Sequence record: OZ346219.1
Strand: one strand, 5' to 3'
Source: a phage
DNA: 64,000 nt
The translations under genes were made by a program, and so were the position numbers. Positions 2,558 through 53,566 of the stretch are shown piece after piece (the first letter of the stretch is position 1; each line of letters starts with the position of its first letter). Below the pieces are notes generated by a model, which made no database searches, was not told where the DNA came from, and worked only from the letters and a program-made list of their open reading frames with translations.

Positions 2558-2562
2558 TTTTA

Positions 2563-2587
2563 GCGGGGATTATCTCCCCGCTTTTCT
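2563..2587 (+). terminator. stem-loop (GCGGGGA-ttatc-TCCCCGC) followed by TTTTCT after gp36
   Basis: Perfect 7-bp GC-rich inverted repeat directly followed by a T-run, seen in sequence. Confidence 0.55.
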
Positions 2588-2627
2588 AAATAATATTATT
2601 CTAACAACCGTTTAAGGATTTTATAAA

Positions 2628-5564
2628 ATGGCAGATTTAAACAGAATCCAATTTAAACGTACTAGCACGAAAGGTCGTAAACCTGATGCTACTACAATGA
2701 CGCAAGGTGAACTTGCTATCAACCTGCATGATTATTATTTGTTTACAAAAAATGACTCTGGTTCTATTATTAACTTAAGCTGTCCTCCGATCTATGACCG
2801 CGATGTTATCATGGCTGGTAAAGTAAAGGGAGATTATTACATTTTAGGTAAAACCGCCAATTATCTTGAAGATCAGACAGCGAGAGACCTTAACCGTTTT
2901 GGGGCATTCCGTACCAACGGTCTAGATGGATTTTTAGATTTGACCTTGCATGTTCCTCATTCTGGTGGCGTTCAACATGGTCGAGGATTTACTTTCAATT
3001 ATGGACACACAGGACCGCGCGTAGAAACTTATGGATATAATGCACAGGGACAAAAAGCATTTAGTTATAAAATGTATCACGAAGGTGATAAACCAACTCC
3101 AGGAGAATTGAACGTCTATAGCAAACAAGAAGTAGATAGAATGTTTGTTAAGAACGTTAAACTTTCTACAGGTTCTGGTGATATCGTTGAAGGTTATTTT
3201 AAATTAGCGACTGCGATGATTCCACAAGACGGTCGTAGTGTATTTTTTCGTATTCATGGTGGTAACGGATATAACGTTACTGCATACGATCAAGTTGATA
3301 TTGTAGAAATTGTTATTCGCAGTGGAAATAATCGTCCTAAAGGTGTTAACGTTATTGCATACCGCCGAAATACAAACAAAGCATTTGATGTTTTGGCTGT
3401 TAATACTTCTGGTGATAACTATGATATCTACGTGAAATATCAGCGTTGCACTGATAACGTTATTGTTGAATTTGGTAAAAGTGTTGATGTTAATCTGGTA
3501 GTTCATGACGTTCCAGACTTTGTTGTTGATCGTCCTGTTGGCGATAATGTTATTGGCGGTCGCGCGGTAACTCTTTTCAACACCGAAAACAAACGAGGTG
3601 TGTTGAGTTTTGACGATAACACACAAAATAGTTATGATATTGTTCACTTGAGTAATGATAAGGGTACTGGACGAAAATATATTCGTAAATTCCGTAGTAA
3701 CTATAATGAAACGATCTGGCATGAGACGGTTCAAGGTAACGTATATCGTTTAGCTACTGGAACTACCGACGCAAACGAAGTTCTCAAAATTACCGACCGC
3801 ACGTTGCAAACTGGCAATGCTGTTTTTGATGGTGGTAATAATAATGTTCGTTTACATCGTAAAACCGGAAAAAGTAACTATCTGGAATATTATGATGCCC
3901 GTAACGGAGCAAATAAACGTCAGGGATATATTGGCTATGGTGATGCCACAACTAACCAGTTGTCAATTATTAACGAACTCTCCGAAGGTAATAACTCGAT
4001 TTTCTTTAACGAGACAGGTCAAATTTCACTTAACGTAGGAAAGACAAAAATTGTTCATAGCAACGGACAATATATTTCTACTAACGCCGATAACTATCGT
4101 ATAATTTATGGTAATTATGGAACATTCTGGCGAAATGATAGCGTTAAACTTTATCTCATGTCCACTGCCGAAAATGATAAATGGGGTACTTGGAATAGCT
4201 ATCGACCATTCATTTACAACCTAACCAACGGCGATGTTCAATTGGGTGGTGATGCCAATACAACCGTATTGACCTTAGAAGCAGCAAGCAAAATCTCAAG
4301 ATTTGGTGGTTCTGTTTATAGCGGTGGCGATTTTTATAATAAAGGCCAGTATATCATAATGGAAGCTGGGCGCGCTGGATCTCGCGATTATATTCGATTT
4401 AATCATTGGGGTGATAGTAATAATGCCCGTGATAACGTTTTGTACATAGAAGATAGTCAAGGCCGACATTTTAGCACAGAACGTGCGATGGGTACTGGTG
4501 CTCTTAAAGCATACTTCTTAGGCGATCTTGAAGTCGGTGGTAAGTTTACTTGGGGTAAAAATACAGCTACATCTAGCTTTAATATTCGTGCATGGGGTAA
4601 TGATTCCCGTAAACAAGTATTAGAATGCGCGGATGAAAGTGGGTGGCATTGGTACACACAACGAACGGGCGGTCCTGATACTTCTGCAATTGATTTTGCC
4701 ATCAATGGTACTGTTAGGCCTCAAGCAATTCACACTGGCGGTAATATCACGCTTAACGGTGCTGATATTGAATTTAAACGAAGCGGTAACAAGCATTTAT
4801 GGTTTAGAGATCCGAACGGCTTAGAGTTGGGTCTGTTGTACTGCGATGATGCTGGTGTTATGCGTATTCGTGGGGAGAAATCGACCGAAGTATGGAAATT
4901 CTCAGCAAAACAGATTCATCTGGAAACTGGTACTGCCGGAAATGGTGTAGGCTTGCTTCGTGGTGCTGTAGGTGGTGGCGCATGGACTCAATGGCGAGAT
5001 CGTGGCACTGGCTTGCAGGTTGATTGTCAGCAATCTGAAAACTCAGCGCATAACGTATGGAGAGCTACGCATCAAGGAAAATACCACATCGCGGCAATGG
5101 GTGTACACGTTCCTGGTGGTACTATCGGAAATGCTATGGTGCGTATTCACGTACACGATGCAACTTTTGACTTTAGCGCAACTGGTGATTTCCAAGCAGG
5201 TCGTAACGGTAATTTTAACGATGTGTACATTCGTTCTGATGCTCGCCTGAAAATCAATAAGGAAGAGTATAAAGAGAATGCTACCGATAAAGTTAATCGC
5301 TTGACGGTATACACCTATGACAAGGTTAAATCTTTAACTGACCGTACTGTCATTGCTCATGAAGTTGGTATTATTGCTCAGGATCTTGAGAAAGAATTGC
5401 CAGAAGCAGTAAAAACCTCGAAGATCGGCGACGGTGATACACCAGAAGAGATCTTAACAATTTCTAACTCTGCTGTCAACGCTCTTTTAATTAAGGCGTT
5501 TCAGGAAATGAGTGAAGAACTTAAAGCCGTTAAAGCTGAACTAGCGGAACTTAAAAAGAATTAA
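2628..5564 (+). CDS. gp37: long tail fibre distal subunit gp37 (978 aa) with C-terminal intramolecular chaperone (peptidase S74-like) domain
   Basis: N-terminus MADLNRIQFKRTSTKGRKPD...GELAINL matches T4 gp37. C-terminus ...SDARLKINKEEY...AHEVGIIAQDLEKELPEAV...LKAVKAELAELKKN fits the S-D-x-R-L-K autocleaving chaperone domain of endosialidase-type fibres and lacks the T4 HxH needle repeats. Confidence 0.85.
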   Translation: MADLNRIQFKRTSTKGRKPDATTMTQGELAINLHDYYLFTKNDSGSIINLSCPPIYDRDVIMAGKVKGDYYILGKTANYLEDQTARDLNRFGAFRTNGLDGFLDLTLHVPHSGGVQHGRGFTFNYGHTGPRVETYGYNAQGQKAFSYKMYHEGDKPTPGELNVYSKQEVDRMFVKNVKLSTGSGDIVEGYFKLATAMIPQDGRSVFFRIHGGNGYNVTAYDQVDIVEIVIRSGNNRPKGVNVIAYRRNTNKAFDVLAVNTSGDNYDIYVKYQRCTDNVIVEFGKSVDVNLVVHDVPDFVVDRPVGDNVIGGRAVTLFNTENKRGVLSFDDNTQNSYDIVHLSNDKGTGRKYIRKFRSNYNETIWHETVQGNVYRLATGTTDANEVLKITDRTLQTGNAVFDGGNNNVRLHRKTGKSNYLEYYDARNGANKRQGYIGYGDATTNQLSIINELSEGNNSIFFNETGQISLNVGKTKIVHSNGQYISTNADNYRIIYGNYGTFWRNDSVKLYLMSTAENDKWGTWNSYRPFIYNLTNGDVQLGGDANTTVLTLEAASKISRFGGSVYSGGDFYNKGQYIIMEAGRAGSRDYIRFNHWGDSNNARDNVLYIEDSQGRHFSTERAMGTGALKAYFLGDLEVGGKFTWGKNTATSSFNIRAWGNDSRKQVLECADESGWHWYTQRTGGPDTSAIDFAINGTVRPQAIHTGGNITLNGADIEFKRSGNKHLWFRDPNGLELGLLYCDDAGVMRIRGEKSTEVWKFSAKQIHLETGTAGNGVGLLRGAVGGGAWTQWRDRGTGLQVDCQQSENSAHNVWRATHQGKYHIAAMGVHVPGGTIGNAMVRIHVHDATFDFSATGDFQAGRNGNFNDVYIRSDARLKINKEEYKENATDKVNRLTVYTYDKVKSLTDRTVIAHEVGIIAQDLEKELPEAVKTSKIGDGDTPEEILTISNSAVNALLIKAFQEMSEELKAVKAELAELKKN

Positions 5565-5598
5565 GGAAACTCCCAGGGAAGGGAACTACTAAGGAGAA

Positions 5599-5844
5599 AT
5601 GGCTATGGTCTATAATATCGTCATTGGTGCTTTATCTAATTTCGGAATGAAATTATTGTCAAAGTTAATTAGTGAAAAGATGCTCACTAAAATTTTCTTC
5701 TATTGCGCTCGTCGTCTTGCGGCTTATACCAATACACCAATTGACGATCGTTTTGTGGAAGAACTTTATAAGGAGTTTAATAAAGACCAGTCAGAAGATA
5801 GTAACGAGCAAGATAAACCTAGTGATAGTCAACTACCTAAATAA
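5599..5844 (+). CDS. hypothetical small protein (81 aa), hydrophobic N-terminus, acidic C-terminus
   Basis: Strong RBS (AAGGAG) 5 nt upstream of the ATG; occupies the slot between gp37 and holin t where T-even phages carry gp38. Confidence 0.45.
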   Translation: MAMVYNIVIGALSNFGMKLLSKLISEKMLTKIFFYCARRLAAYTNTPIDDRFVEELYKEFNKDQSEDSNEQDKPSDSQLPK

Positions 5845-5877
5845 GAGTACACTGTCATAGTTATCTTAGGGCATTAT

Positions 5878-6534
5878 ATGCAAGTTTCTGAAAAAGGGAA
5901 AGACTTTGCTATCTCAAATGTCCTGCGCGCTATTTTCACAACTAAAAGCACGGAGTTGCTCGTACTTCGTGTTTTTGCTGCCGTCGTGTTGTCCATATTG
6001 GCATTTGTCGTTTATAGTAAAAACGAGTTATTTGCGCTTTATAAAGAGACTCGTTATGAGACTTATGCTCACATTCTCCAGGTAGAGAAAGACCGCAATT
6101 TTGATAATGCAGCACAGGAGCAGTTACAGATAGTTCATGTGTCGGCTGATGCCGATTTTTCTGCTGTTTTTAGTTTTCGTCCGAAAAACCTAAACTATTT
6201 TGTTGATTTGGTGGCATATGAAGGAAAGCTACCACACACAATCGATGAAAAAAATTTAGGCGGATTCCCTATCAATAAAACGAGTGAAGAATATCGTAGG
6301 CATCTTTTAGGTAAATCATATTTTACCGATAAAGATTTCCAGTATATTCCATCAAGAGAAAAGAAATTAGAGAATATCGATATAGGTTTCATGTATTCTT
6401 GTCCTATATTCAATCTCGATAATGTCTATTCTGGTAGTATCGCCATTTCATGGAAGAATAAACCGGATATTGACATTGAGAATTTAGATACTCTTTGCAA
6501 TCAATCTGCCAGAATCCTCGGAAGGATTAGATAA
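5878..6534 (+). CDS. t: holin t (218 aa)
   Basis: Same length as T4 holin; conserved stretches LQIVHVSADADFSAVFSFRPKNLNYFVD, YSCPIFNLDNVYSGSI, ARILGR match the recalled T4 T sequence. Confidence 0.9.
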   Translation: MQVSEKGKDFAISNVLRAIFTTKSTELLVLRVFAAVVLSILAFVVYSKNELFALYKETRYETYAHILQVEKDRNFDNAAQEQLQIVHVSADADFSAVFSFRPKNLNYFVDLVAYEGKLPHTIDEKNLGGFPINKTSEEYRRHLLGKSYFTDKDFQYIPSREKKLENIDIGFMYSCPIFNLDNVYSGSIAISWKNKPDIDIENLDTLCNQSARILGRIR

Positions 6535-6540
6535 CTTAAA

Positions 6541-6573
6541 GGGGAAGCCTTTCGGCCTCCCCTTCTTTTTATT
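6541..6573. terminator. bidirectional stem-loop (GGGGAAGCC-tttc-GGCCTCCCC) between holin t (+) and the convergent minus-strand block
   Basis: GC-rich hairpin with one internal mismatch, followed by TTCTTTTTATT on the + strand; lies between convergent genes. Confidence 0.55.
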
Positions 6574-6817
6574 GGCGCATAGACGCGCCTGAATCGCATT
6601 TTGACGCTGTATGATGAAAACAGGTAGCGTACCAGTCATCGGCTTGTTTGTCTTCGTCAGAAAACGCGTAATTGCGTTGTATGCCGTTTTCTACTTTGAC
6701 CAGTGCAATAGCTGTTTCTGGAAGATCAATCAATCGAACAAAATCACCATCTTCCCACTCTACACGAGCAATATCATAGCCCATCTCAAAGTATACAATC
6801 GCTTGTTCTAATTTCAT
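6569..6817 (-). CDS. hypothetical protein (82 aa)
   Basis: Track ORF; its ATG overlaps the stop of the upstream gene (ATGA), consistent with coupled translation. Confidence 0.45.
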   Translation of the reverse strand: MKLEQAIVYFEMGYDIARVEWEDGDFVRLIDLPETAIALVKVENGIQRNYAFSDEDKQADDWYATCFHHTASKCDSGASMRQ

Positions 6818-7143
6818 TCTGGAAACTTCCCGTAAACATTCTCTGCCAGCTTACGTGCATCTTTTACAATATCTTTCATGTAATGACTATAATTTTTAGC
6901 TAGATCAATTATGCAATCAACAAAGAAGTAATAGCGTCGCAGTGCTACCAGCTCAACATCTTCAAGATGACCATTTTCTCCAATCGCTGAAATATGTTTA
7001 AATTCCTTTCGGATCGCGTCCATCGCTACATTAACTTCTTTTATAATATCTTTCGTATTATATGCACCTCGACTAATCAAAATTTTGGTTAGGTCTTCTG
7101 CTTTTTCGTGAAAGTTGTCAATTTCAAACTCGATCATAATCAC
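6814..7143 (-). CDS. hypothetical protein (109 aa), paralog of 7252-7584
   Basis: C-terminal ...LAKNYSHYMKDIVKDARKLAENVYGKF resembles ...LNDHNYTMNMTKIIDEARIMTENIFGKF of the neighbour. Confidence 0.5.
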   Translation of the reverse strand: MIMIEFEIDNFHEKAEDLTKILISRGAYNTKDIIKEVNVAMDAIRKEFKHISAIGENGHLEDVELVALRRYYFFVDCIIDLAKNYSHYMKDIVKDARKLAENVYGKFPE

Positions 7144-7251
7144 CTCTCATAATTTCACGCTGTTGTTTCAACATTTTTTCGTGGTTTGCTAATTCTATAC
7201 CTTGTAATAGCATAACCAGTGCAATTTTCAATGATTCATCATCTTTCATAA

Positions 7252-7584
7252 TCAAAATTTACCGAAAATATTCTCTGTCATAATTCTTGCTTCGTCGATT
7301 ATTTTCGTCATGTTCATGGTGTAGTTATGATCATTTAGTGCCTTAATGACAACGAGCAAGGAATCTAAAAACACTCGATACCGGGTATATTCTACGCTAT
7401 TTGTGAATACCGATGTTTTCTCTACTTTATCGATCAGATAGCCTAAAGCCGATAGCGCCTCGTTTACTTCCCTTGTTACTTTATCGGCGCTAAACAACAC
7501 CGGATAAAGACGCGGTGTGATTAACCGCGCTGCCTCTTTCAATTCGGTCGCTTTCCATGATTCATATTTGTCATAGTTAAACAT
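7252..7584 (-). CDS. hypothetical protein (110 aa), paralog of 6814-7143
   Basis: Shared C-terminal motif with the adjacent ORF (tandem duplication). Confidence 0.5.
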   Translation of the reverse strand: MFNYDKYESWKATELKEAARLITPRLYPVLFSADKVTREVNEALSALGYLIDKVEKTSVFTNSVEYTRYRVFLDSLLVVIKALNDHNYTMNMTKIIDEARIMTENIFGKF

Positions 7585-7596
7585 TGTATAATCTCC

Positions 7597-7929
7597 TTAC
7601 AGATGAAAACCTGTTACGATCACCGCATCGATCATACCGCTAGGAATAAACGGTTCGCCCTCTTTTATTTCAACTTTGAATTGATGCCATTTCGCTAATA
7701 CTTCTTCCGGTACACCCAGCGATTCGGCGTCTGCTTTAGTTTCATCCATAATCCAACTAGGCTGCATGAGAGCATAGTTTACATAGTCCATTTCTGGGGT
7801 CATGTCATCAATGTTAATATATTTGCAGTTGACGCGTTTCAGAATTTCAAATTCTTTATTGTCAACCTGTACCATGTATAATTCAGTAGTTTCTGGAATC
7901 AGTTCCCACACAATCAGTACATTTTTCAT
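7597..7929 (-). CDS. hypothetical protein (110 aa)
   Basis: Track ORF in tightly packed minus-strand array; no motif recognised. Confidence 0.45.
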   Translation of the reverse strand: MKNVLIVWELIPETTELYMVQVDNKEFEILKRVNCKYINIDDMTPEMDYVNYALMQPSWIMDETKADAESLGVPEEVLAKWHQFKVEIKEGEPFIPSGMIDAVIVTGFHL

Positions 7930-7937
7930 AGTTCACC

Positions 7938-8306
7938 TCACTTAACAAAGATTTTCTTTAATGCTTTCAGGATCGTTGCTTCCGGCGCTTCTTCCGGTGG
8001 AGGAAGCAATTCTACCACTTCCTCTTCCAACTCGATATAGTCTACCAGATATTCTACATAGAATGCAAGTGCTTCCATGAAATTAGATGCTACATCCGAT
8101 TCACCACACGCGCCCACATGCATTGTATAAACATCACTGCGATCAAGTTTGTGGATACTGCCTAGATAGTTTCGGTTATACCAGACTTCCCACACTTTCA
8201 ACTTTCCGGTTTTGGTTGCTGTTTTATAATCGGTTTCGTAATGATGCAATTGACGTTGCAAATCATTGATAATAACACATTTTTCGTAATTGCTTTGAAT
8301 TTCCAT
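7938..8306 (-). CDS. hypothetical protein (122 aa), acidic/proline-rich C-terminus
   Basis: Track ORF in the packed array. Confidence 0.45.
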   Translation of the reverse strand: MEIQSNYEKCVIINDLQRQLHHYETDYKTATKTGKLKVWEVWYNRNYLGSIHKLDRSDVYTMHVGACGESDVASNFMEALAFYVEYLVDYIELEEEVVELLPPPEEAPEATILKALKKIFVK

Positions 8307-8316
8307 GATGTAATCC

Positions 8317-8508
8317 TCACTTATCGTTAAGAAGTTCTAAAACTTTCTGTCGTACTTTGTCGATATTAGTTGATTCAAAAACTGTACGGTATCCCCAGCT
8401 TTGACCGTATGAGCGGTTGCAATCTCCATATCCCCATTGTTCAACCTGATAATATTCAAGGAATGGGTGCTGCCGAACTATGATACCATCTCTATTAAAA
8501 ATTACCAT
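8317..8508 (-). CDS. hypothetical protein (63 aa)
   Basis: Track ORF in the packed array. Confidence 0.35.
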   Translation of the reverse strand: MVIFNRDGIIVRQHPFLEYYQVEQWGYGDCNRSYGQSWGYRTVFESTNIDKVRQKVLELLNDK

Positions 8509-8530
8509 AATATGATCCTCAAGTCAAAAC

Positions 8531-8812
8531 TTATCTTCGGTTGTACTTCTGCCACTTTCGGTAATACTGCTTGTAAACCTGTCTTGCGTTTTCACCATCT
8601 TTACTATACATGTTATCTACCATCAAGTCAATAAGACCTTCCGGTGTCTGGTAGTTCCCCGCTCGGATAAGTTCTTTAATTAAAGTGTCCTGATGATCTT
8701 TGTATACCACGTTAATGATGGTCTTTTCTGCTTTCTTCGTCCCGATCATCCGGTGGTTAGCTTTCATCGCATCCCACCAATCTTTTGTGATCTTCATGTT
8801 ATTGAATTGCAT
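8531..8812 (-). CDS. hypothetical protein (93 aa)
   Basis: Track ORF in the packed array. Confidence 0.4.
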   Translation of the reverse strand: MQFNNMKITKDWWDAMKANHRMIGTKKAEKTIINVVYKDHQDTLIKELIRAGNYQTPEGLIDLMVDNMYSKDGENARQVYKQYYRKWQKYNRR

Positions 8813-8823
8813 AATTTAACCTC

Positions 8824-9582
8824 TTACTTGCAAACGTATTGATCTACATCAATTGCGCCACCGAATGTAGGATGACGTTTTTCAAATCGAATAGTTCCGT
8901 CGTTTGGTTCGAAAACGGAGTATTCATATAGATCTTTCTTACCAACATTCTTATAAAACCCGCCTTTAGTCATAACGGTTTCTTGTACGTTTGCTTTGTG
9001 TACGTTGTATTCATCAATGTATACAAAATCAACCATCTTCCCATTTTTAATGGTTACTTTAAGATCTCCTGGTTGATTTCCATATTTGGCATACAGTGGC
9101 GCTTCTTTAATTTTTGTGGAAATTCCATCTTTCATACTCCACTCATAACGAACGGTGCATTGATAGGTAAAAGTTTCGACCTTCGGTTCTTCTACCACTT
9201 TTGCTTCCTGTTTCGGTTGTTCTTCTTCAACCTTCGCAGAAGTCTCTGAATCGCTTTCTGACGCGGTTTCTTCTTTAGGTAATACATTCATCAAGTTTTG
9301 GATTTGAGCGTTGTATACAGCCTCCAGTGGCTGAATCTGCCCGATATTGATCATTGTGTCACGAACAGTTTTATTCCAGTTTCGTTGCTCTTGTTTCAGA
9401 GACGGATCAATCTTAACAGCCTTAACATACACCTCATGAAGTTTAGAGTCCAGTGCGGAGATAGACTCATTAGCACAAATAAACTTCTCTGATTTGGTAG
9501 TAGCTTTAGCGCAATCAAAGGACGCAGCGTTAGCACCGAAAGCAGTAGCAGAAAGAACGATAGCAGCGATAATGTTTTTCAT
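8824..9582 (-). CDS. secreted protein with N-terminal LprI/DUF1311-like (lysozyme-inhibitor-type) domain
   Basis: Signal peptide MKNIIAAIVLSATAFGANA; then SFDCAKATTKSEKFICANESISALDSKLHEVY matching the C-x-x-A-x-T-x-x-E-x-x-I-C...LD..L...Y DUF1311 signature; own promoter and RBS GAGGAA. Confidence 0.6.
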   Translation of the reverse strand: MKNIIAAIVLSATAFGANAASFDCAKATTKSEKFICANESISALDSKLHEVYVKAVKIDPSLKQEQRNWNKTVRDTMINIGQIQPLEAVYNAQIQNLMNVLPKEETASESDSETSAKVEEEQPKQEAKVVEEPKVETFTYQCTVRYEWSMKDGISTKIKEAPLYAKYGNQPGDLKVTIKNGKMVDFVYIDEYNVHKANVQETVMTKGGFYKNVGKKDLYEYSVFEPNDGTIRFEKRHPTFGGAIDVDQYVCK

Positions 9583-9616
9583 AATATATTCCTCAGTGTT
9601 TTGTCTTGATGGGAGT

Positions 9617-9645
9617 ATCTTACTACTCCCTTAATCCGGTGTCAA
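9617..9645 (-). promoter_or_regulatory. sigma70-type early promoter (TTGACA-17-TAAGAT) with -10 inside a GGGAGTA/TACTCCC palindrome
   Basis: Read on the minus strand: TTGACAccggattaagggagtagTAAGATactccc, then RBS and ATG of 8824-9582. Confidence 0.55.
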
Positions 9646-9652
9646 CTACTTT

Positions 9653-9808
9653 TTAAATTTCTTCTACAGTAAAGTCTTCAATGTTGTTGTGCTCGGAGAA
9701 CGTTGCCAGACCAGCATTCCATGCATCATCCTCAGAGAAGAATACACCGTAACGTTCATATCCTTTAGCGCCTTCAAATTTAACCATTAATTTGTGAGTA
9801 TGTTTCAT
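9653..9808 (-). CDS. hypothetical small protein (51 aa; start moved to internal ATG downstream of promoter)
   Basis: The promoter at 9840-9868 lies inside the longer track ORF; RBS AGGAGA precedes the ATG at 9808. Confidence 0.4.
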   Translation of the reverse strand: MKHTHKLMVKFEGAKGYERYGVFFSEDDAWNAGLATFSEHNNIEDFTVEEI

Positions 9809-9839
9809 TTTGATTCTCCTTCGTTGTCTTGATGAGTTT

Positions 9840-9868
9840 AGTATAGGGGATCGCCGATCCCCTGTCAA
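9840..9868 (-). promoter_or_regulatory. early promoter TTGACA-17-TATACT whose spacer is the palindrome GGGGATCGGCGATCCCC (two GATC sites)
   Basis: Seen on the minus strand: TTGACAggggatcggcgatccccTATACT. Confidence 0.55.
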
Positions 9869-9882
9869 CCAGTTTTTAGAAA

Positions 9883-10143
9883 TTATTTTCGCCATTCACC
9901 TGAAACAATGAAGTTTGTAAAGTGATTGTGGTCCGTGATAATGTCATTAAGTACCATATGCGGATATGCTTTAGTGTAATCACGTTTACGATCAGTCATC
10001 CAACCAACGAAAGTCGGTGCAAAGTACGGCACACCGTCAGACGATGCCATATTAAACCCTTTGTCAGCCATAAATGCAGCCGCCCTAAGATTTTTAATTG
10101 AAGTAGTGCGACTAATTTCAAAAACTTTATCGGTAAAATTCAT
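9883..10143 (-). CDS. hypothetical protein (~86 aa; track ORF extends to 10164)
   Basis: ATG at 10143 lies just after the upstream stop with a G-rich RBS; the alternative start at 10164 overlaps the upstream gene. Confidence 0.4.
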   Translation of the reverse strand: MNFTDKVFEISRTTSIKNLRAAAFMADKGFNMASSDGVPYFAPTFVGWMTDRKRDYTKAYPHMVLNDIITDHNHFTNFIVSGEWRK

Positions 10144-10144
10144 T

Positions 10145-10354
10145 TTAAGCCCCCGCTCGTGCATTAATACGCATTTTCTGCATAGCCATGATCTGGCTTA
10201 CTGCTTCTTCTTTACGTTCTTGCGTGATAACGTGACCAGATTCCGCAAACTCTCCCGCAACTTCTTCTACAATCTCGCGAACTTGAGAACGTCCAAAGAT
10301 GCGGTTTCCTTCGTAGCTCATAAATTCAGTCACTACTTGCTCAATAGATTTCAT
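10145..10354 (-). CDS. hypothetical protein (69 aa)
   Basis: Preceded by promoter 10387-10415 and RBS AAGGGGAA. Confidence 0.45.
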   Translation of the reverse strand: MKSIEQVVTEFMSYEGNRIFGRSQVREIVEEVAGEFAESGHVITQERKEEAVSQIMAMQKMRINARAGA

Positions 10355-10386
10355 GTGATTCCCCTTCTTTCGTTTGGTATGGGAGT

Positions 10387-10415
10387 ATATTACTACTCCC
10401 GTTTCTTTACGTCAA
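10387..10415 (-). promoter_or_regulatory. early promoter TTGACG-17-TAATAT with GGGAGTA/TACTCCC palindrome around -10
   Basis: Minus strand: TTGACGtaaagaaacgggagtagTAATATactccc. Confidence 0.5.
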
Positions 10416-10422
10416 CTCGTTT

Positions 10423-10665
10423 TTAGAAATTTTTCGCTTCTTCTTCGGTCATCATAACCGCGCATTCGTGCATAACTTTGAAAACCGGATCAATCATGTC
10501 GAATGCTTCGCGGGACAGTTTACGAGAAGCGATTTTGATTGCTTCTACGTCTTCTACTACAGGAACAAAAACAGTTTTCAGTTCGTCGAGGACGGCAGCT
10601 TCTTTTTCATTCAGGAAGATCCCAGCGTCGTACAGTGCAACTTCGATAACATTAACTTTAACCAT
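10423..10665 (-). CDS. hypothetical protein (80 aa; start at MVKVNV...)
   Basis: RBS GGAGGA 7 nt upstream of the ATG at 10665; promoter 10699-10727 upstream. Confidence 0.45.
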   Translation of the reverse strand: MVKVNVIEVALYDAGIFLNEKEAAVLDELKTVFVPVVEDVEAIKIASRKLSREAFDMIDPVFKVMHECAVMMTEEEAKNF

Positions 10666-10698
10666 TTTTATTTCCTCCAGTTCGTTTCGGTATGGGAG

Positions 10699-10727
10699 TA
10701 TAATACTACCGATGACCTTTGGCGTCA
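10699..10727 (-). promoter_or_regulatory. early promoter TTGACG-17-TATTAT (degenerate palindrome copy)
   Basis: Minus strand: TTGACGccaaaggtcatcggtagTATTATactccc; overlaps the last codons of 10706-10930. Confidence 0.45.
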
Positions 10728-10930
10728 ACTAGTTTTTTGTTATTTTCGTGAAATTTTTTCGTCGCCTCATGTGCTTTTCGCTGGGCTTCTTGTTGTGCTT
10801 GCTGGCGTGCTGCCTCTTGCGATGCCATAACAGACGCATTTGCAGCAGTTACAGCCGCGACCATCGCTGCGGTATTAGCATTTACCGTACATGCACTAGC
10901 CAGCAAAGCAATCGCAATCATTTTCTTCAT
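10706..10930 (-). CDS. small secreted protein (74 aa), signal peptide plus Ala/Gln-rich region
   Basis: N-terminus MKKMIAIALLASACTVNA is signal-peptide-like; low-complexity body, so coding status is uncertain. Confidence 0.35.
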   Translation of the reverse strand: MKKMIAIALLASACTVNANTAAMVAAVTAANASVMASQEAARQQAQQEAQRKAHEATKKFHENNKKLVDAKGHR

Positions 10931-11166
10931 AGTTTCCCCTTTAGGTTATCTTCGACCTTCACCCATTCCGCGTATTCTTGCGCGGCTACTTTCGGATTTA
11001 GGCCATCTTCGTACATTGCATCAAGTAATTCTTTGTCGGTTGGCTTATACCCTAGATAAGCCTCCACCTGATTTTTCCAAATTTTATACCAGTTCATATT
11101 ATCACCAATCAAGAGCGCGTGTCCCTGCGTCTTCCCATGCTTGATCCATAACAGCCTTGAAAACAT
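10927..11166 (-). CDS. hypothetical protein (79 aa; possible internal start at 11097)
   Basis: Track ORF; the alternative ATG at 11097 directly follows the upstream stop. Confidence 0.4.
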   Translation of the reverse strand: MFSRLLWIKHGKTQGHALLIGDNMNWYKIWKNQVEAYLGYKPTDKELLDAMYEDGLNPKVAAQEYAEWVKVEDNLKGKL

Positions 11167-11374
11167 ATTCTAGAGTATCATCTTTAGAGAATCCGAAGAC
11201 TTTAGACGGAATATCTTCGATTGCTACTCCCGCAACTTCTGCATTACGCGCTTGGCAATAATGCAACTCTAAGTTATCGAGATAGCGACCGCCTAATTTC
11301 TCCATATCATCCCAGCATTTCCAGTAACCTACTTTATCTGCAATTGCCAACACTTTGCTGTTTTCGTTGTTCAT
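11102..11374 (-). CDS. hypothetical protein (90 aa; start at MNNENSKV...)
   Basis: Promoter 11396-11424 and RBS AGGAGA precede the ATG at 11374. Confidence 0.45.
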   Translation of the reverse strand: MNNENSKVLAIADKVGYWKCWDDMEKLGGRYLDNLELHYCQARNAEVAGVAIEDIPSKVFGFSKDDTLEYVFKAVMDQAWEDAGTRALDW

Positions 11375-11395
11375 CTTTGATTCTCCTTTTGTTTG

Positions 11396-11424
11396 GTATG
11401 GGTGTATTATGCAATGTTGGATTC
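11396..11424 (-). promoter_or_regulatory. early promoter TTGACT-17-CATAAT
   Basis: Minus strand: TTGACTtacagaatccaacattgCATAAT, followed by RBS and ATG. Confidence 0.45.
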
Positions 11425-11484
11425 TGTAAGTCAACAACTTTTTAAAATAAAAAAGCCGACCACACGGATCGGCTTAATAATCAG

Positions 11485-11880
11485 TTACTTACTAAATTTC
11501 TTTTTGGCTTCGTCTACTGCATGAGATGCCAGCACCGCTGCCGCATGTGCACTTTTATCTGTGTTGCATAGAACACCCAGATAAACATCACGCCAAAGTT
11601 TAATCATCTCGTAGATCATATCAATATCATTTTCTTGTTTGTTGGCGATACTATTCGTCGTTATCTGGTAAGGCAACGGCTTGATCTGTACTGGTTCCGC
11701 CATCGGGCTAATCGGTTTAGGATCAGTCATAATAGGTGCTGTTGTTGGTGGTGTTTTCCATACGCCATTATTCCACGGTTTAATCGTTGTATCGTAAAGT
11801 TTATAAGGATTTTTGTCTGGGTCAACCATCCATGCATGATGAGTACCCAAACCATTTGAAGTAATGCGTCGTTCAGTCAT
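11485..11880 (-). CDS. hypothetical protein (131 aa)
   Basis: Track ORF, packed array. Confidence 0.45.
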   Translation of the reverse strand: MTERRITSNGLGTHHAWMVDPDKNPYKLYDTTIKPWNNGVWKTPPTTAPIMTDPKPISPMAEPVQIKPLPYQITTNSIANKQENDIDMIYEMIKLWRDVYLGVLCNTDKSAHAAAVLASHAVDEAKKKFSK

Positions 11881-12082
11881 ACTTTCCCTCCAAAAATTCT
11901 TTCATCAAATAGTCTATCGTTGCTCTGTGTTCTGGTGTGTTTGTTATCTCTGCTAACTTGTTCAGAGATTCAATAGTGATCCGGTTGGCTTCTTCCATAG
12001 TCTCAACGACCATCGGTACAATCTTTTTATTGTTGTACACGAAAGCCACATAACCGCCTTCTGGATATTCTTTCATAATCAA
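11873..12082 (-). CDS. hypothetical protein (69 aa)
   Basis: Track ORF, start overlaps the gp52 stop. Confidence 0.4.
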   Translation of the reverse strand: MIMKEYPEGGYVAFVYNNKKIVPMVVETMEEANRITIESLNKLAEITNTPEHRATIDYLMKEFLEGKYD

Positions 12083-13440
12083 CCCTTCTTAAGTTCTTTA
12101 AGATCTTTCTTATATTCCTTCATTGCGGTCGTCTTTGTCCAATACTCATATTCACTATGATGTTTATCGGCATCTTTGACCAGTCGATCATACTCTTCTT
12201 GAGTAACGCTATACAATGGCATAGAAACGAGCTTATCGGCATATGGGCGAAGTTTTTCATGTTCATTGATGGATTGCATTACCTCGGCCTTTTTCTTGCC
12301 CTGTAGCTCGATTTCGCCCTTAATTACGCGGTCTATAAATTCAGCTTTAGCCATTGCATAATTGTATGCTTCCAGTGTTTCCGCTTGCATCAATTCAATG
12401 CGTTTATCTACATAGCCTAATCGGATTTCGACGAATCGACGGATCAGATCGCTCGCTTTCTCGAATACTTCTACTAAACCACGTTCGTTAACTACTACGA
12501 TATTCTGGGCTACTAACTGCGTTAGTTTAAAATCCTTCATGATTTGCTCATGTCGAGCGGATTCATCTTCGCTTTTGAAATAATCGCGTTTCAGTGTTAC
12601 TTCAAATCTGAATCCGTCCTTAGAGCAACGGTCATTATACGATACAATCAGATCTTTTTCTTCCAGTGCATCCAGTACCGCTACATATTCTTCACGGTCG
12701 AACTTATAAGGAACTTCTGATATTGTCAGCTTAGTCTTGCCGTTTAGTTCATATGTACCCTCAAGAATCACACCATCGCGGTCATCACGAGGGATAACTT
12801 TACCCGTGAATTTCGGGAATTGAACACTAGGTTCTTTATCCAGTTTTCCGGCAAGTGCTAGCTCTGTGCATTCAATAAGGCTTTCCAGTGAATGCGGTAA
12901 AATGTCAGTTTTATACCCTGTAGCAATACCACTAATACCATTAGCCAATACCATTGGCACAACTGGCAAGTAGAACGCTGGCGGGATGTGTTCCAGATCT
13001 TCGTGCTTAGGTGCGCAATTCATATCTTTATAGATTTTAAAGAAGTTTTCATGCACACGAGCAAAGATATAACGTGCTGCACCTGCTTTCTGGACTAAAC
13101 GAGATCCGAAGTTACCTTGACCGTCAAGCAGTGGAGTATTATTGCTCCATGTATTCGCCATGAGTGATCCGGCTTCTACGGCATTAGTTTCCCCGTGGTG
13201 ATACCCCAACTCAGCAACACCAGATCCAATATCTGCCATCTTACGGAATTTCTTACGGTCGCCTTTACTCTTTTGAAGTGCGCACTCCATAACAAAGCGT
13301 TGTACTGGTTTAAGCCCATCTACCAATTGAGGAATCCCGCGTTCCTCGGCAGAATAGATCGCATATTCCTTAGCTTCATTATGTACAATGCTTTCAAGGC
13401 TGCGGTAAGTAACTGATTTATTCATCTTCACCTCATACAC
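12079..13440 (-). CDS. gp52: DNA topoisomerase II medium subunit gp52 (GyrA-like)
   Basis: 453 aa; ...PQLVDGLKPVQRFV...GYHHGE...LLDGQGNFGS... are GyrA/ParC N-terminal motifs and match recalled T4 gp52. Confidence 0.85.
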   Translation of the reverse strand: MYEVKMNKSVTYRSLESIVHNEAKEYAIYSAEERGIPQLVDGLKPVQRFVMECALQKSKGDRKKFRKMADIGSGVAELGYHHGETNAVEAGSLMANTWSNNTPLLDGQGNFGSRLVQKAGAARYIFARVHENFFKIYKDMNCAPKHEDLEHIPPAFYLPVVPMVLANGISGIATGYKTDILPHSLESLIECTELALAGKLDKEPSVQFPKFTGKVIPRDDRDGVILEGTYELNGKTKLTISEVPYKFDREEYVAVLDALEEKDLIVSYNDRCSKDGFRFEVTLKRDYFKSEDESARHEQIMKDFKLTQLVAQNIVVVNERGLVEVFEKASDLIRRFVEIRLGYVDKRIELMQAETLEAYNYAMAKAEFIDRVIKGEIELQGKKKAEVMQSINEHEKLRPYADKLVSMPLYSVTQEEYDRLVKDADKHHSEYEYWTKTTAMKEYKKDLKELKKG

Positions 13441-13795
13441 GCTTACAAATCACATTCTTTACTTTATCAGATTTATCCGCCCAATCCAATAGCCATTTTA
13501 ACGGAAGGATTGAAACAATAAACGGGGCAGCAATCAAAGCAAACATGATACACCTGATAATCAGGAAAACGCAAGTGACAAAACTAGCGATAGTGATCCC
13601 GACAAAACAAAATACCATAGAAAACAGAGTAATGATATAGAAAGGCCAGAATACCCACTCCCGCATCTTAACGCCTTTGTATTCTCTGAATTGCTTAAAA
13701 TCTACAAACAACTCTCGGATAGACGCGTACAGGACCGAAAAATCATCTTTCATTGCTCTGAATGAGCAATCTTCTATTTTAGAATGACCTAGCAT
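13433..13795 (-). CDS. small integral membrane protein (120 aa, 2-3 predicted TM helices)
   Basis: Long hydrophobic stretches (FYIITLFSMVFCFVGITIASFVTCVFLIIRCIMFALIAAPFIVSIL). Confidence 0.45.
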   Translation of the reverse strand: MLGHSKIEDCSFRAMKDDFSVLYASIRELFVDFKQFREYKGVKMREWVFWPFYIITLFSMVFCFVGITIASFVTCVFLIIRCIMFALIAAPFIVSILPLKWLLDWADKSDKVKNVICKRV

Positions 13796-13797
13796 TA

Positions 13798-14091
13798 TTA
13801 ACCGCCTTTCATCATTGATACTGGAATTGTTTTCTGATTTGTGTATAACTGGCCTACTTCAATTTTTTCTTGAATCACCACGACGTTACAATATCCACTG
13901 TCTTTAAGTTTTCTGATAATGTCTCGCTTTTGTTCGTCGGTGATAGGATTGACGGTTCTCACCAATTCACCGCAAATAATAGCACCATCTTTACAATTAC
14001 CAGTAACTTTCATGCTACGACCGTGAACAACAACCACATCACCGTAAATCACATTTTCGTCGTCGTATTTGGTAATAATCGTGACCGTCAT
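13798..14091 (-). CDS. hypothetical protein (97 aa)
   Basis: Track ORF. Confidence 0.4.
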   Translation of the reverse strand: MTVTIITKYDDENVIYGDVVVVHGRSMKVTGNCKDGAIICGELVRTVNPITDEQKRDIIRKLKDSGYCNVVVIQEKIEVGQLYTNQKTIPVSMMKGG

Positions 14092-14100
14092 AATGTTATT

Positions 14101-14130
14101 CCCTCTAAGAAAGGCCGCGCAAAGCGGCCT
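14101..14130 (-). terminator. stem-loop (AGGCCGC-gcaaa-GCGGCCT) with flanking T-rich tracts
   Basis: 7-bp perfect inverted repeat between two minus-strand genes; T-rich on both sides. Confidence 0.4.
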
Positions 14131-14137
14131 ATGTTTA

Positions 14138-14470
14138 TTATTGTTCTACAGTATAGCCGTTGTTTTCAAGCCATGCAATAACAATCTTTTCGCCAATTTC
14201 ATCGAGCATTTCATCAGCGCCATATTCTTTAATGAAAGTCGATGGATCATTATTGCTTACTACGTGCTGGATCACAACATGTTCAGGAATTGCGTCTAGC
14301 AGTTCGCTATGATCATACTCATTAACGATATCTTCAACACTAACATTATTAACCAAATCAACATCATCCATAGTCACAGTAACGCGACCGGACGGACGCA
14401 ATGAATATTGGCTACTTTCAACTTCAACATGTGCACTTTCGCAAGTAACTTTCATATCAACCATAATCAA
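14138..14470 (-). CDS. highly acidic hypothetical protein (110 aa)
   Basis: By my count ~23 Asp/Glu versus ~5 Lys/Arg. Confidence 0.45.
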   Translation of the reverse strand: MIMVDMKVTCESAHVEVESSQYSLRPSGRVTVTMDDVDLVNNVSVEDIVNEYDHSELLDAIPEHVVIQHVVSNNDPSTFIKEYGADEMLDEIGEKIVIAWLENNGYTVEQ

Positions 14471-14478
14471 TTCCTCTG

Positions 14479-15480: not shown

Positions 15481-15532
15481 TCCTCTAATAGTGGGCGACT
15501 CTCGCCGCCCGATTCACATCATTATACCAGAA

Positions 15533-15664
15533 TTATTTTGCTTCTACAACCTTGCGGATTGTGCGGTCTGATACATTATAGATTCGTGCCAGTTCGCCTT
15601 TAGTCAAGCCGCGAGCGTATTGTTTACGGATGGTTTCTTTCTGGATAGCGGTCAGTTTAGTCAT
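15533..15664 (-). CDS. small HTH-like ORF (43 aa) between rIIA and rIIB; not in the ORF track (<60 aa)
   Basis: Hand-translated on the minus strand: MTKLTAIQKETIRKQYARGLTKGELARIYNVSDRTIRKVVEAK; resembles the rIIB N-terminus (MTKAKI...TTREALAAAFGVSRRTASRVL). Confidence 0.4.
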   Translation of the reverse strand: MTKLTAIQKETIRKQYARGLTKGELARIYNVSDRTIRKVVEAK

Positions 15665-15675
15665 AATATCACCTC

Positions 15676-18814: not shown

Positions 18815-18848
18815 TATTAAATCCTCATAAAAGAAAAGGGAGACTCCC

Positions 18849-18876
18849 ATTATAGAGAATCTCCCTTGTATGTCAA
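18849..18876 (-). promoter_or_regulatory. early promoter TTGACA-16-TATAAT flanked by AAGGGAGA/TCTCCCTT palindrome
   Basis: Minus strand: TTGACAtacaagggagattctcTATAATgggagtctccctt. Confidence 0.5.
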
Positions 18877-52101: not shown

Positions 52102-52596
52102 TTATTTTACCAGTTCTGCTAATTCTTTTTCTTTAGCTTCTAGTTCAGCTTTAAGCTGTTTAATCTCTTGTCGCTTCTTATTAGCGGCTTCCTGCTTACT
52201 ATTTCGGATAACCTGATCTAGATACAACTCCCAATCCTGAATATTTTTGATAATGTATCCGTCAACATTAATTGGTCGGAGATTCAGTACAGCTTCCAGT
52301 TTAGTCGCAAAAACTTTAATTGCTGGCGTGAAGTATTCATATTCGTTATCTTCAAACCAATAACCTAGACTTGCATTATCAATACGAAGACGAAGTTCAA
52401 GATCAAGGTCTTTATCTTCGGTGTAAAGATCTTTCACCTGACCCAGCGAACTAACAACAACTTTAAAACGAATTTTATCTACACCACCAAACACATCAGT
52501 AAGTATACCAGCAATTGAGCTATTAGCGCAAGATTGGTCGCTGAATGCGTCAAGGTTTTCTTTAGTTACAGTATACCAAACATCTTGTACCCACAT
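52102..52596 (-). CDS. hypothetical protein (164 aa), coiled-coil C-terminus
   Basis: Track ORF with promoter 52628-52656 upstream. Confidence 0.45.
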   Translation of the reverse strand: MWVQDVWYTVTKENLDAFSDQSCANSSIAGILTDVFGGVDKIRFKVVVSSLGQVKDLYTEDKDLDLELRLRIDNASLGYWFEDNEYEYFTPAIKVFATKLEAVLNLRPINVDGYIIKNIQDWELYLDQVIRNSKQEAANKKRQEIKQLKAELEAKEKELAELVK

Positions 52597-52627
52597 AATA
52601 TAATCCTCTCGTTGTTTAGATGGGAGT

Positions 52628-52656
52628 ATCTTACTACTCCCGTTTCATCATGTCAA
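52628..52656 (-). promoter_or_regulatory. early promoter TTGACA-17-TAAGAT with GGGAGTA/TACTCCC palindrome
   Basis: Minus strand: TTGACAtgatgaaacgggagtagTAAGATactccc; the -35 overlaps the upstream stop codon. Confidence 0.5.
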
Positions 52657-53237: not shown

Positions 53238-53506
53238 TTCACTAATTGAACAGCACGGAACAGAATGCGCTCACACGGAAGCAGCATAAATTCCCAACGC
53301 GGATCAAAGTCTTTAGCGGTGTATGTTTTCCCATCAACCGAGATTTCACTTACATAACCAACAGGTGACACTTTAAGAACAGTAAACCCATTCTTGATGA
53401 CTTCGTAGGTATCTTTCACCCCTTCGTATTCATCATCTAAGAAGTCTTTATGTGCTTGCTCAGATTTAAAAACATAGGCAACACCGGATTTAAACATCTT
53501 ACGCAT
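53234..53506 (-). CDS. hypothetical protein (90 aa; start moved to MRKMFKSG...)
   Basis: The promoter at 53538-53566 lies inside the longer track ORF; RBS AAGGAGA precedes the ATG at 53506. Confidence 0.4.
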   Translation of the reverse strand: MRKMFKSGVAYVFKSEQAHKDFLDDEYEGVKDTYEVIKNGFTVLKVSPVGYVSEISVDGKTYTAKDFDPRWEFMLLPCERILFRAVQLVK

Positions 53507-53537
53507 TGTTGATTCTCCTTCTTGATTAGATGGGAGT

Positions 53538-53566
53538 ATTTTACTACTCCCATTTCTTATTGTCAA
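53538..53566 (-). promoter_or_regulatory. early promoter TTGACA-17-TAAAAT with GGGAGTA/TACTCCC palindrome
   Basis: Minus strand: TTGACAataagaaatgggagtagTAAAATactccc. Confidence 0.5.

Follow-up and report, generated by a model that had tools for sequence, protein, structure and literature searches.

Stem-loop cassettes around the -10 box of early promoters in a Krischvirus phage very probably belong to the PeSL family of RB49

Promoter-early stem-loops (PeSLs) were defined on the coliphages RB49 and phi1, with five possible positions of the stem-loop relative to the promoter; a stem-loop "overlapping the -10 box" is among the two commonest (Arbiol et al., 2010, PMC2839356). PeSLs are intergenic, mostly in hyperplastic regions, and were proposed as linkers by which T4-type phages shuffle their accessory genes as modules. 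Promoter strength, excised mini-circles, and one spacer-type stem-loop that acts as a terminator have been reported for the family, and RB49 PeSL193/192 (GGGAGTGTC..GATACTCCC, -10 TAAGAT), a paralogue of the cassettes described below and a member of the same subclass, was cloned as a promoter (Arbiol et al., 2010, PMC2839356). Before that, promoters and terminators of RB49 had been treated as separate features, and the palindrome at the -10 box was not described; however, the C-rich region at -3 to -1 noted in that study corresponds to the 3' arm of the stem (Nolan et al., 2006, PMC1524935). The PeSLs of T4/PST and KVP40/nt-1 likewise combine a promoter, a stem-loop, and a ribosome-binding site (RBS) before variable small genes with adjacent indels (Comeau et al., 2014, PMC4122927). 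Unlike the units studied here, their promoters deviate from the sigma70 consensus (TTTACW..TAYWAT; TTGYVH..TAWWAT), their stems differ in sequence, and the PST stems lie just upstream of the promoter and not around the -10 box.

Small genes of unknown function also travel as units with their expression signals in integron gene cassettes and lambdoid "morons," and both analogies were drawn by the PeSL authors (PMC2839356). However, PeSLs have no integrase and no attC and are apparently exchanged by short homology between regulatory cassettes, whereas morons are not thought to move via flanking signals. In the promoters of the phage N4 virion RNA polymerase, a hairpin in single-stranded DNA is the recognition element of the phage polymerase. 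There, too, promoter and short hairpin fall together; however, the -35 and -10 boxes of PeSLs are standard sigma70 elements, and many of the sister promoters have no hairpin.

The stretch of DNA analyzed here (the window; 64,000 nucleotides of sequence record OZ346219.1) comes from a Krischvirus, an RB49-like phage, and was collinear with RB49 and 58 further Krischvirus genomes, at 95–98% identity. The preliminary description had reported at least four sigma70-like promoters with a palindrome bracketing the -10 hexamer. This was confirmed, since the palindrome GGGAGTA-N6-TACTCCC occurred in four exact copies (9611–9630, 10381–10400, 52622–52641, and 53532–53551). All copies are oriented 5' to 3' along the minus strand, which is the region's coding strand. 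When up to three mismatches were allowed, five palindromes were found in the window, a count that none of 100 dinucleotide shuffles equaled (shuffle mean 0.92), and the full unit TTGAC-N10-GGGAGTAGTAARATACTCCC at no more than one mismatch gave four matches against 0.00 expected. The exact units, TTGACR-N9-GGGAGTA-G-TAANAT-ACTCCC, of which none is expected by chance, occupied positions 9611–9645, 10381–10415, 52622–52656, and 53532–53566 of the minus strand. The gap between TTGACR and GGGAGTA, initially given as 11 nt, was measured as 9 nt, which results in the canonical 17-nt spacer from the -35 box to the -10 box; pattern searches of the window with the N11 spacing and a 7-nt loop returned no matches, the true loop being 6 nt. 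The -10 hexamers were TAAGAT in two copies, TAATAT, and TAAAAT, so that the consensus is TAANAT and not TAARAT, and the hexamers matched the sigma70 consensus at 9–10 of 12 positions.

Every site was intergenic, with the stop codon of the upstream ORF on one side and the following ORF's ATG on the other. The four sites are orthologous to the predicted early promoters Pe:158760, Pe:159267, Pe:38234, and Pe:39144 of RB49 (Nolan et al., 2006, PMC1524935, supplement), and the 7-bp TransTerm terminator of RB49 at 38186–38205 is identical to the GGGAGTA hairpin (PMC1524935, additional files 3 and 6). The PeSL at 9580..9645 (minus strand, like all those that follow), the orthologue of Pe:158760, lies 5' of the RB49ORF260c homologue (252 aa, 8824–9582). 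It consists of the -35 box TTGACA (9645–9640), the left arm GGGAGTA (9630–9624), the -10 box TAAGAT (9622–9617), the right arm TACTCCC (9617–9611), a predicted +1 A at 9610, the Shine-Dalgarno (SD) sequence GAGGA at 9594, and the ATG at 9582–9580. The PeSL at 10352..10415, the orthologue of Pe:159267, precedes the RB49ORF262c homologue (69 aa, 10145–10354), with the -35 box TTGACG at 10415–10410, the arms at 10400–10394 and 10387–10381, the -10 box TAATAT at 10392–10387, the predicted +1 at 10380, and the ATG at 10354–10352. A chimeric PeSL at 52594..52656 is situated 5' of the RB49ORF057c homologue (164 aa, 52102–52596); its -35 box TTGACA (52656–52651) is followed by the left arm (52641–52635), the -10 box TAAGAT (52633–52628), the right arm (52628–52622), the predicted +1 (52621), and the ATG (52596–52594). 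The PeSL at 53504..53566, the orthologue of Pe:39144, was found between homologues of gene 49 (endonuclease VII) and RB49ORF060c (90 aa, 53234–53506). Here, the -35 box TTGACA (53566–53561), the -10 box TAAAAT (53543–53538), and the arms at 53551–53545 and 53538–53532 are accompanied by a stem that reaches 9 bp (ATGGGAGTA/TACTCCCAT), a predicted +1 at 53531, an SD inside AGGAGAATCAA (53519–53509), and an ATG at 53506–53504. The preliminary description of a single RBS type at a fixed distance held only roughly for the spacing (predicted 5'UTRs of 25–28 nt) and failed for the type, as two modules were present: GAGGAWTATATTATG at sites 9645 and 52656 and a AGGAGAATCAA-like module at 53566 and 10415.

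Comparison with the RB49 and phi1 PeSLs (PMC2839356) demonstrated that the four units share the genus, the orthologous loci, and a near-consensus TTGACA-N17 promoter, here with the -35 boxes TTGACA or TTGACG. The upstream region is AT-rich in both (65–80% A+T in the 20 nt before the -35 box in the window, counted by hand) and includes the previous stop codon, which lies 3–9 nt before the -35 box or, at the chimeric site, within it (TGA, 52653–52655). The G-run/C-run stem is also common to both; in the window it comprised 7–9 bp around the -10 box, and its folding energy was -12 to -14 kcal/mol for RNA within 55 nt of context (z of about -3) and -5.2 to -7.5 kcal/mol for DNA. Further shared features are the 3' SD and ATG, the latter 25–28 nt past the predicted start with stereotyped RBS modules, and the downstream small ORFs of unknown function, which in the window are the homologues of RB49ORF260c, 262c, 057c, and 060c, each with the annotation of a hypothetical protein. 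Indels between close relatives also characterize both, and the presence or absence of the cassettes varied across 59 genomes. Nothing essential distinguished the window from RB49 and phi1, apart from the chimeric PeSL that marks a frd.2/goF deletion and two cassettes additional to those of RB49. In view of the genus, the orthologous loci, and the match to the definition and subclass, the PeSL reading of the preliminary description is supported: we consider it very probable that the four GGGAGTA units are PeSL cassettes of an RB49-like T4-type coliphage, of the subclass overlapping the -10 box. The element, the subclass, and its proposed roles were published for the same phage group between 2006 and 2014; thus, the finding is real, not new, the window opens no new question, and it serves as a clean extra example.

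The arms that bracket the -10 box were not uniform. The pairs GGGAGTA/TACTCCC, GGGGGTA/TACCCCC, GGGTGTA/TACACCC, GGGGATA/TATCCCC, and GCGGTTA/TGACCGC were found, with compensatory changes in three of the seven pairs and a covariation score of 0.46 against 0.20 in shuffles (reached by none of 500), in rows that were picked because they pair and are therefore subject to ascertainment bias. The pairs were counted on arms-only sequences; a whole-hairpin MAFFT alignment placed its gaps upstream of the stem and confused the registers. In RB49, 22 of the 62 candidate early promoters had the -10 box enclosed by a stem of 7 bp or longer, compared with 6.6 expected when promoter halves were swapped. Lone non-Watson-Crick pairs in unique stems included eight G.T on the sense strand and two doubtful A.C, an excess that comprises about eight events and part of which strand-biased mutation could account for. 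Since paralogous cassettes keep the pairing with differing arms and the lone mismatches are mostly G.T, selection seems to act on the structure of the sense strand and not on an operator sequence, which narrows the possible roles of the hairpin. Cleavage of the left-arm GGAG by RegB was considered and dropped; the sister stems GGGGGTA, GGGTGTA, and GGGGATA have no GGAG. The right-arm sequence also occurred without any left arm at promoters 11434 and 60923 of the window and 118308, 118654, and 119157 of RB49; thus, the hairpin is dispensable for the promoter.

These features define the build of a cassette and suggest how it may function. An AT-rich stretch, in which the upstream small gene has its stop codon, is followed by the near-consensus sigma70 promoter (TTGACR, 17 nt, TAANAT), on which unmodified host RNA polymerase would act early in infection; the use, the start site, and the timing of these promoters in the window phage are predicted from the sequence. 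In the hairpin of 7–9 bp with G/C ends, the -10 hexamer forms the loop and the C-rich discriminator (-7 to -1) the 3' arm. Transcription is predicted to begin at the A right after the hairpin, and a leader of 25–28 nt with the stereotyped RBS would lead to the ATG that opens the next small gene. Because this start is downstream of the 3' arm, the hairpin would be absent from the cassette's own mRNA and present solely in read-through RNA from upstream. In this RNA, a GGGAGTA-class hairpin most likely insulates the cassette, either through attenuation of read-through or as a protective 3' end for the message from upstream. The approximately 65–100 bp common to the cassettes also provide short homology patches for the phage recombination system, at which cassettes and their genes are deleted, inserted, and swapped, as three junctions in the window show.

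Like canonical intrinsic terminators, the hairpins are G+C-rich (four of seven pairs are G-C). A U-run directly 3' of the stem was absent at the four sites, where the tails were AUCAAGAC, AUACCAAA, AUCUAAAC, and CUAAUC, and a terminator scan made no minus-strand call at any of them. Since the GGGAGTA class has no U-tract, classical intrinsic termination by these hairpins appears doubtful. The only stem-loop that was tested as a terminator, PeSL211/210, is of the spacer type and is followed by a U-rich -10 box; it does not represent the type overlapping the -10 box (PMC2839356). A search of the whole window against the curated Rfam families gave no matches at the gathering score. A broader proposal can be made only tentatively: the -10 hairpin may be no terminator and have a role of its own, as RNA of the sense strand or as single-strand DNA, e.g., by setting and protecting the upstream message's 3' end right at -1 of the following promoter, and the combination of a promoter-embedded hairpin with a small ORF may be a general gene-shuffling device beyond T4-like phages. 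The same layout with different stems was found as arrays in a GC-rich 350-kb IMG/VR contig and at a second IMG/VR locus, and neither locus had DNA similarity to known phages. The PHROGs of the 350-kb contig were unknown-function families only, and its single weak protein match was to a 484-kb uncultured phage, the matched locus of which had no such promoters. IMG/VR scans anchored on one arm returned mostly chance matches, and the complementary arm was found solely in Krischvirus-like contigs.

The preliminary description had also proposed a recombination hotspot, and the indel junctions within the window support this, as three of the five indels relative to RB49 ended at PeSLs. The clearest case of shuffling was a 1.17-kb frd.2/goF deletion, shared by none of the 59 relatives, with the crossover inside cassette 52594–52658 and within a 23-nt identical RBS block of the two flanking PeSLs. 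The promoter half of 52594..52656 is that of the RB49 PeSL upstream of frd.2, joined to the RBS and ATG of ORF057; thus, this cassette is the deletion junction. In addition, two window-specific cassettes, of 523 bp (starting at 10416, directly upstream of PeSL 10352..10415) and 282 bp (starting at 9869, directly upstream of PeSL 9806..9868), were inserted exactly between the upstream stop codon and the -35 box of a PeSL, and one of the two was present in 32 of the 59 relatives. These junctions, together with the mini-circles reported for the PeSL family, would also be expected if the hairpin acted in DNA, as a cruciform or single-strand form that is cut or stalled (e.g., by endonuclease VII) and triggers cassette exchanges and mini-circle formation. 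The DNA hairpin is stable enough in single strands, and the one-strand G.T bias would also fit a hairpin in one DNA strand. However, the crossovers mapped to the 23-nt block of RBS identity or to AT-rich DNA upstream of the -35 box, away from the stem, and these positions do not implicate the hairpin itself in promoting recombination. Arms of 7 bp around a 6-nt spacer also make a poor cruciform, and short homology suffices for T4-type recombination, as argued by Arbiol et al. (PMC2839356). We therefore regard the DNA-level trigger as unlikely.

The perfect 7+7 palindrome centered on the -10 box in four promoters could also be read as a double-stranded operator, on which a dimeric phage or host protein would turn the early promoters off or on by covering the -10 box; Arbiol et al. 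speculated that a GGGG...CCCC motif might be the target of a DNA-binding protein (PMC2839356). This alternative of the preliminary description is disfavored, since the arms covary between cassettes and no single sequence is retained: A-T, G-C, and T-A all occur at the fourth pair, one cassette has entirely different arms (GCGGTTA), and complementarity persists throughout. Moreover, the inter-arm distance is 6, 8, or 9 nt in Krischvirus and the stem is placed elsewhere in other cassettes, a variation that no single dimeric binding site would tolerate, and lone G.T changes on one strand are meaningless for duplex recognition. An operator is thus very unlikely.

Two further explanations fared worse than the operator. 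A terminator in the antisense direction, which would stop plus-strand RNA polymerase entering the early region from the late genes, is suggested by the plus-strand palindrome at 10379–10402, which precedes TTCTTTACGT and which the scan classed as terminator-like, and by the A-rich sense strand of the spacer upstream of the left arm at three of the four sites; however, only one of the four sites passed the scan, the plus strand continues with TTAATCCGG after the 9611 site, and the wobble pairs, all G.T on the minus (sense) strand, become non-pairing C.A on the plus strand, an orientation on which this extremely improbable reading was rejected. It is barely credible that the palindrome is a functionless passenger copied with the promoter during cassette duplication, as the near identity of the four copies over about 35 nt and the function, or at least the persistence, of some promoters without a left arm might suggest, given that independent arm sequences still pair at the same position, stems around the -10 box are three times commoner than in the swapped-halves control, and an unrelated large phage contig has the same architecture with other arms.

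Two degenerate copies were listed in the preliminary description, both with shifted positions. The first, given as 10699–10727, keeps the right arm, with its true position at 10700–10728. It belongs to a unit at 10663..10728 within the 523-bp cassette, with the -35 box TTGACG (10728–10723), the -10 box TATTAT (10705–10700), the right arm TACTCCC (10700–10694), and the ATG at 10665–10663; the left arm has decayed to ATCGGTA, with three Watson-Crick pairs and one G.T, and the hairpin is essentially lost (z of -1.3). The second, given as 11396–11424, proved to be a promoter with a right-arm-like sequence, TACACCC (11406–11400), and no left arm, with its true position at 11406–11434. It forms part of a PeSL of a different subclass at 11372..11475, the orthologue of RB49 Pe:159769, with the -35 box TTGACT (11434–11429), the -10 box CATAAT (11411–11406), and the ATG at 11374–11372; upstream of the -35 box there is a separate terminator-like hairpin of 9 bp with a U-tract (11475–11453). 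One more PeSL, at 9806..9868, had gone unmentioned within the span first described. This orthologue of RB49 Pe:158983 has its -35 box at 9868–9863, its -10 box at 9845–9840, and its ATG at 9808–9806, and its stem-loop occupies the spacer (TTGACA-GGGGATCGGCGATCCCC-TATACT).

A megablast search with window positions 9000–12000 returned 59 records, all of them RB49-like Krischvirus with 90–99% identity, and the window was collinear with the whole RB49 genome (window 1–15675 corresponds to RB49 149090–164018, and window 15676–63998 to RB49 1–49567). In the regions that were read, 9500–11500 and 52500–53700, the minus strand is both the coding strand and the strand of the motif. The exact palindrome GGGAGTA-N6-TACTCCC was found on this strand at 9611–9630, 10381–10400, 52622–52641, and 53532–53551, followed by genes homologous to RB49ORF260c, 262c, 057c, and 060c. 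When up to three mismatches were allowed, there were five matches in the window, a count reached by none of 100 shuffles (mean 0.92), and the full unit TTGAC-N10-GGGAGTAGTAARATACTCCC gave four matches against 0.00 expected. Thus, the shared promoter–palindrome unit of the preliminary description was recovered in four exact copies; however, the spacing proposed there gave no matches, whereas the true spacing found them all.

In these promoters, the −35 and −10 boxes are separated by 17 nt. Counted from the predicted start, the left arm spans −20 to −14 and the right arm ends at −1; the −10 hexamer forms the hairpin loop and also supplies the right arm's first base. The predicted +1 is an A, and a leader of 25–28 nt leads to the SD and ATG. 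Both degenerate copies reported earlier are real promoters, with coordinates corrected to 10700–10728, where the left arm is partly lost, and to 11406–11434, where it is lost completely and a separate U-tract hairpin sits upstream of the −35. Instead of the single RBS type suggested initially, there are two stereotyped modules, AGGAGAATCAA (10 copies) and GAGGAWTATATTATG (13 copies). Every copy is on the minus strand, and both modules are far commoner in the window than expected by chance. Only the AGGAGAATCAA module contains GGAG, the motif cleaved by RegB in T4-type phages; one may speculate that the two modules might differ in RegB sensitivity.

As defined on RB49 and phi1, a promoter-early stem-loop cassette (PeSL) combines an AT-rich region that holds the stop codon of the preceding gene with a consensus sigma70 promoter, a stem-loop, and the SD and start codon of the next gene; each genome has about 51 such cassettes, most of them in front of ORFans in hyperplastic regions (Arbiol et al., 2010; PMC2839356). 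PeSLs were later extended to T4/PST and KVP40/nt-1 (Comeau et al., 2014; PMC4122927). All sequence-level features of this definition are present at the studied loci, which are orthologous to published PeSLs, and the RB49 orthologs had already been listed as the predicted early promoters Pe:158760, Pe:158983, Pe:159267, Pe:159769, Pe:36999, Pe:38234, and Pe:39144 (Nolan et al., 2006; PMC1524935). The window motif is therefore a known element, correctly re-identified as a PeSL; what this analysis adds is the frd.2 junction, together with the covariation and wobble-orientation evidence. Strong promoter activity, about 13,000 Miller units, was published for PeSL206/205, and clones of PeSL193/192 were mutated in the −35 or −10 (PMC2839356). 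According to our census, PeSL193/192 of RB49 is a close paralog of the motif, with a stem overlapping the −10 (TAAGAT) and the arms GGGAGTGTC/GATACTCCC.

The census was blind to stems: a candidate needed a TTGAC-like −35, a spacer of 16–18 nt, and a −10, followed by an SD and an ATG opening an ORF of 30 aa or more. By these criteria, the window contained 26 candidates and RB49 contained 62. The arms bracketing the −10 varied while their complementarity was kept: GGGAGTA/TACTCCC, GGGGGTA/TACCCCC, GGGTGTA(T)/(A)TACACCC, GGGGATAT/ATATCCCC, ATGCGGTTAT/ATGACCGCAT, and AAGGGAGATTCTC/GGGAGTCTCCCTT. Loops were 6, 8, or 9 nt long, and the right arm was constantly located at −7 to −1. When 14 distinct arm pairs, including three broken ones, were aligned on their arms alone, compensatory changes were seen at three of the seven stem pairs. 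The covariation score was 0.46, compared with 0.20 for shuffles, and none of 500 shuffles reached it; pairing collapsed when the partner arm was slid. Since 11 of the 14 rows had been picked for pairing, which biases this score, a test free of that bias was added, in which the upstream and downstream halves were exchanged between promoters. Stems of 7 bp or more surrounded the −10 in 22 of the 62 RB49 candidates against 6.6 expected from swapped halves, and in 6 of the 26 window candidates against 2.7. IMG/VR sites anchored on one arm had all seven complementary bases in Krischvirus-like contigs and were otherwise chance-like matches.

The strand under selection was assessed from single internal non-Watson–Crick pairs in unique stems, including those of the most divergent relative, phage Whisky. 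There were eight G.T pairs on the sense strand, two A.C pairs (one in an outer extension and one mis-registered), and two others. Neutral transitions should produce G.T and A.C equally often; therefore, the excess points to selection on the single-stranded sense form, either RNA or non-template DNA, with the reservations of a small sample and possible strand bias in mutation. It also argues against an antisense terminator. The operator proposed in the preliminary description, akin to the speculation that a GGGG...CCCC motif is a protein target (Arbiol et al., 2010; PMC2839356), is disfavored both by the variable arms with conserved pairing and by the G.T excess, which argues against a duplex operator.

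Because the predicted start, the A directly 3′ of the right arm, comes after the hairpin, the cassette's own transcript would lack it. Only RNA reading through from upstream would contain the hairpin, at about 30–45 nt beyond the stop codon of the upstream gene, in line with the published "insulator" idea. Terminator-like activity is known for the PeSL211/210 stem-loop (PMC2839356), and the RB49 hairpin 38186–38205 is a listed TransTerm terminator (Nolan et al., 2006; PMC1524935). The GGGAGTA class lacks the U-tract of a canonical intrinsic terminator (tails AUCAAGAC, AUACCAAA, and AUCUAAAC), so that classical intrinsic termination is doubtful; behind spacer-type PeSL stems, by contrast, the U-rich −10 hexamer itself comes next. 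The terminator scan made no sense-strand calls at hairpins of the GGGAGTA class, and the element matched no Rfam family. Attenuation or 3′-end protection is the likeliest role inferred for the subclass. At 18830–18876 (minus strand), a 13-bp stem of the AAGGGAGATTCTC/GGGAGTCTCCCTT arms (−21.3 kcal/mol, z −5.8), whose exact loop is the −10 hexamer TATAAT, is followed by UUUUCUUUU; this is a full terminator-like hairpin looped by the −10 of a promoter.

The right arm doubles as a C-rich discriminator. Nolan et al. (2006; PMC1524935) noted C-rich positions −3 to −1, as well as agreement with the 5′-end mapping of Desplats (2002); early promoters of T4-type phages have this discriminator even without a hairpin. 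In our census, sister promoters also retained the right arm without the left; thus, the stem was apparently added to a promoter feature that was already there. The same arms occur at 36744–36764 (minus strand) as GGGGAGTA-TAAAA-TACTCCCC. This hairpin lies 3′ of a TTGACT-N17-TATAAT promoter and is followed by GUUUUAAUG. Since the orthologous loop region in RB49 is annotated as a hypothetical late-promoter −10 (20510–20516), this palindrome may bracket a late instead of an early promoter.

Recombination between PeSLs, including mini-circles, has been demonstrated (PMC2839356), and the suggested recombination hotspot was borne out insofar as three of the five true indels between the window and RB49 end at PeSLs. 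The frd.2 deletion removed RB49 36988–38157, located between two PeSLs and containing frd.2 (goF mRNA metabolism modulator in the RefSeq annotation). The flanking alignment segments overlap by 65 bp (window 52594–52658), and a three-way alignment showed that the PeSL preceding frd.2 contributed its promoter and hairpin, which in the window are fused to the ORF057 start, with the crossover inside a 23-nt RBS block, AACAACGAGAGGATTATATTATG, common to both RB49 cassettes. None of the 59 Krischvirus records covered the junction in one piece, all matches stopping within 52594–52658; it could in principle be an assembly artifact. The upstream ORF (52653–53237) has its TGA stop inside the −35 of the next cassette (T-TGA-CA, 52651–52656). 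The other two indels ending at PeSLs are extra small-gene cassettes: 9869–10152 (282 bp), adjoining PeSL 9868, and 10416–10940 (523 bp), adjoining PeSL 10415. Both were inserted exactly between the upstream stop codon and the PeSL −35, in an AT-rich stretch; the 523-bp cassette occurs in 32 of the 59 records, four of which have only its first 350–362 bases. The mapped crossovers fall in shared flanks and none at the stem, a pattern more consistent with short-patch homologous recombination than with a mechanism specific to the stem. The two indels unlinked to PeSLs are the missing HNH endonuclease gene RB49ORF040c (approximately 42601–42605) and a 550-bp insert (26738–27291) adjoining the primase gene; phage Whisky has an ORF at the position matching this insert.

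Outside Krischvirus, the IMG/VR pattern scans retrieved by chance two unrelated loci with a G+C content of 53–55%, L045 (1900–7200) and L117 (1200–6300), composed of tandem small ORFs with one GTTGAC-N17-GATACT/TATNAT promoter each. Of their 18 promoters, 13 have the −10 enclosed by a stem of 8 bp or more, versus 20% in the swapped-halves control; the stem sequences differ from promoter to promoter, and some are GGGAGTA/TACTCCC with a 3-nt loop. The 350-kb source contig of L045 (55% G+C) had no DNA match to cultured phages. A further phage promoter-cassette array lies at a third IMG/VR locus, L009 (3400–10000), where about eleven tandem units without a hairpin share TTGACACTTTCTCAATAACTGCTATACTACACCCATAGA as a near-identical promoter upstream of an SD and ATG.
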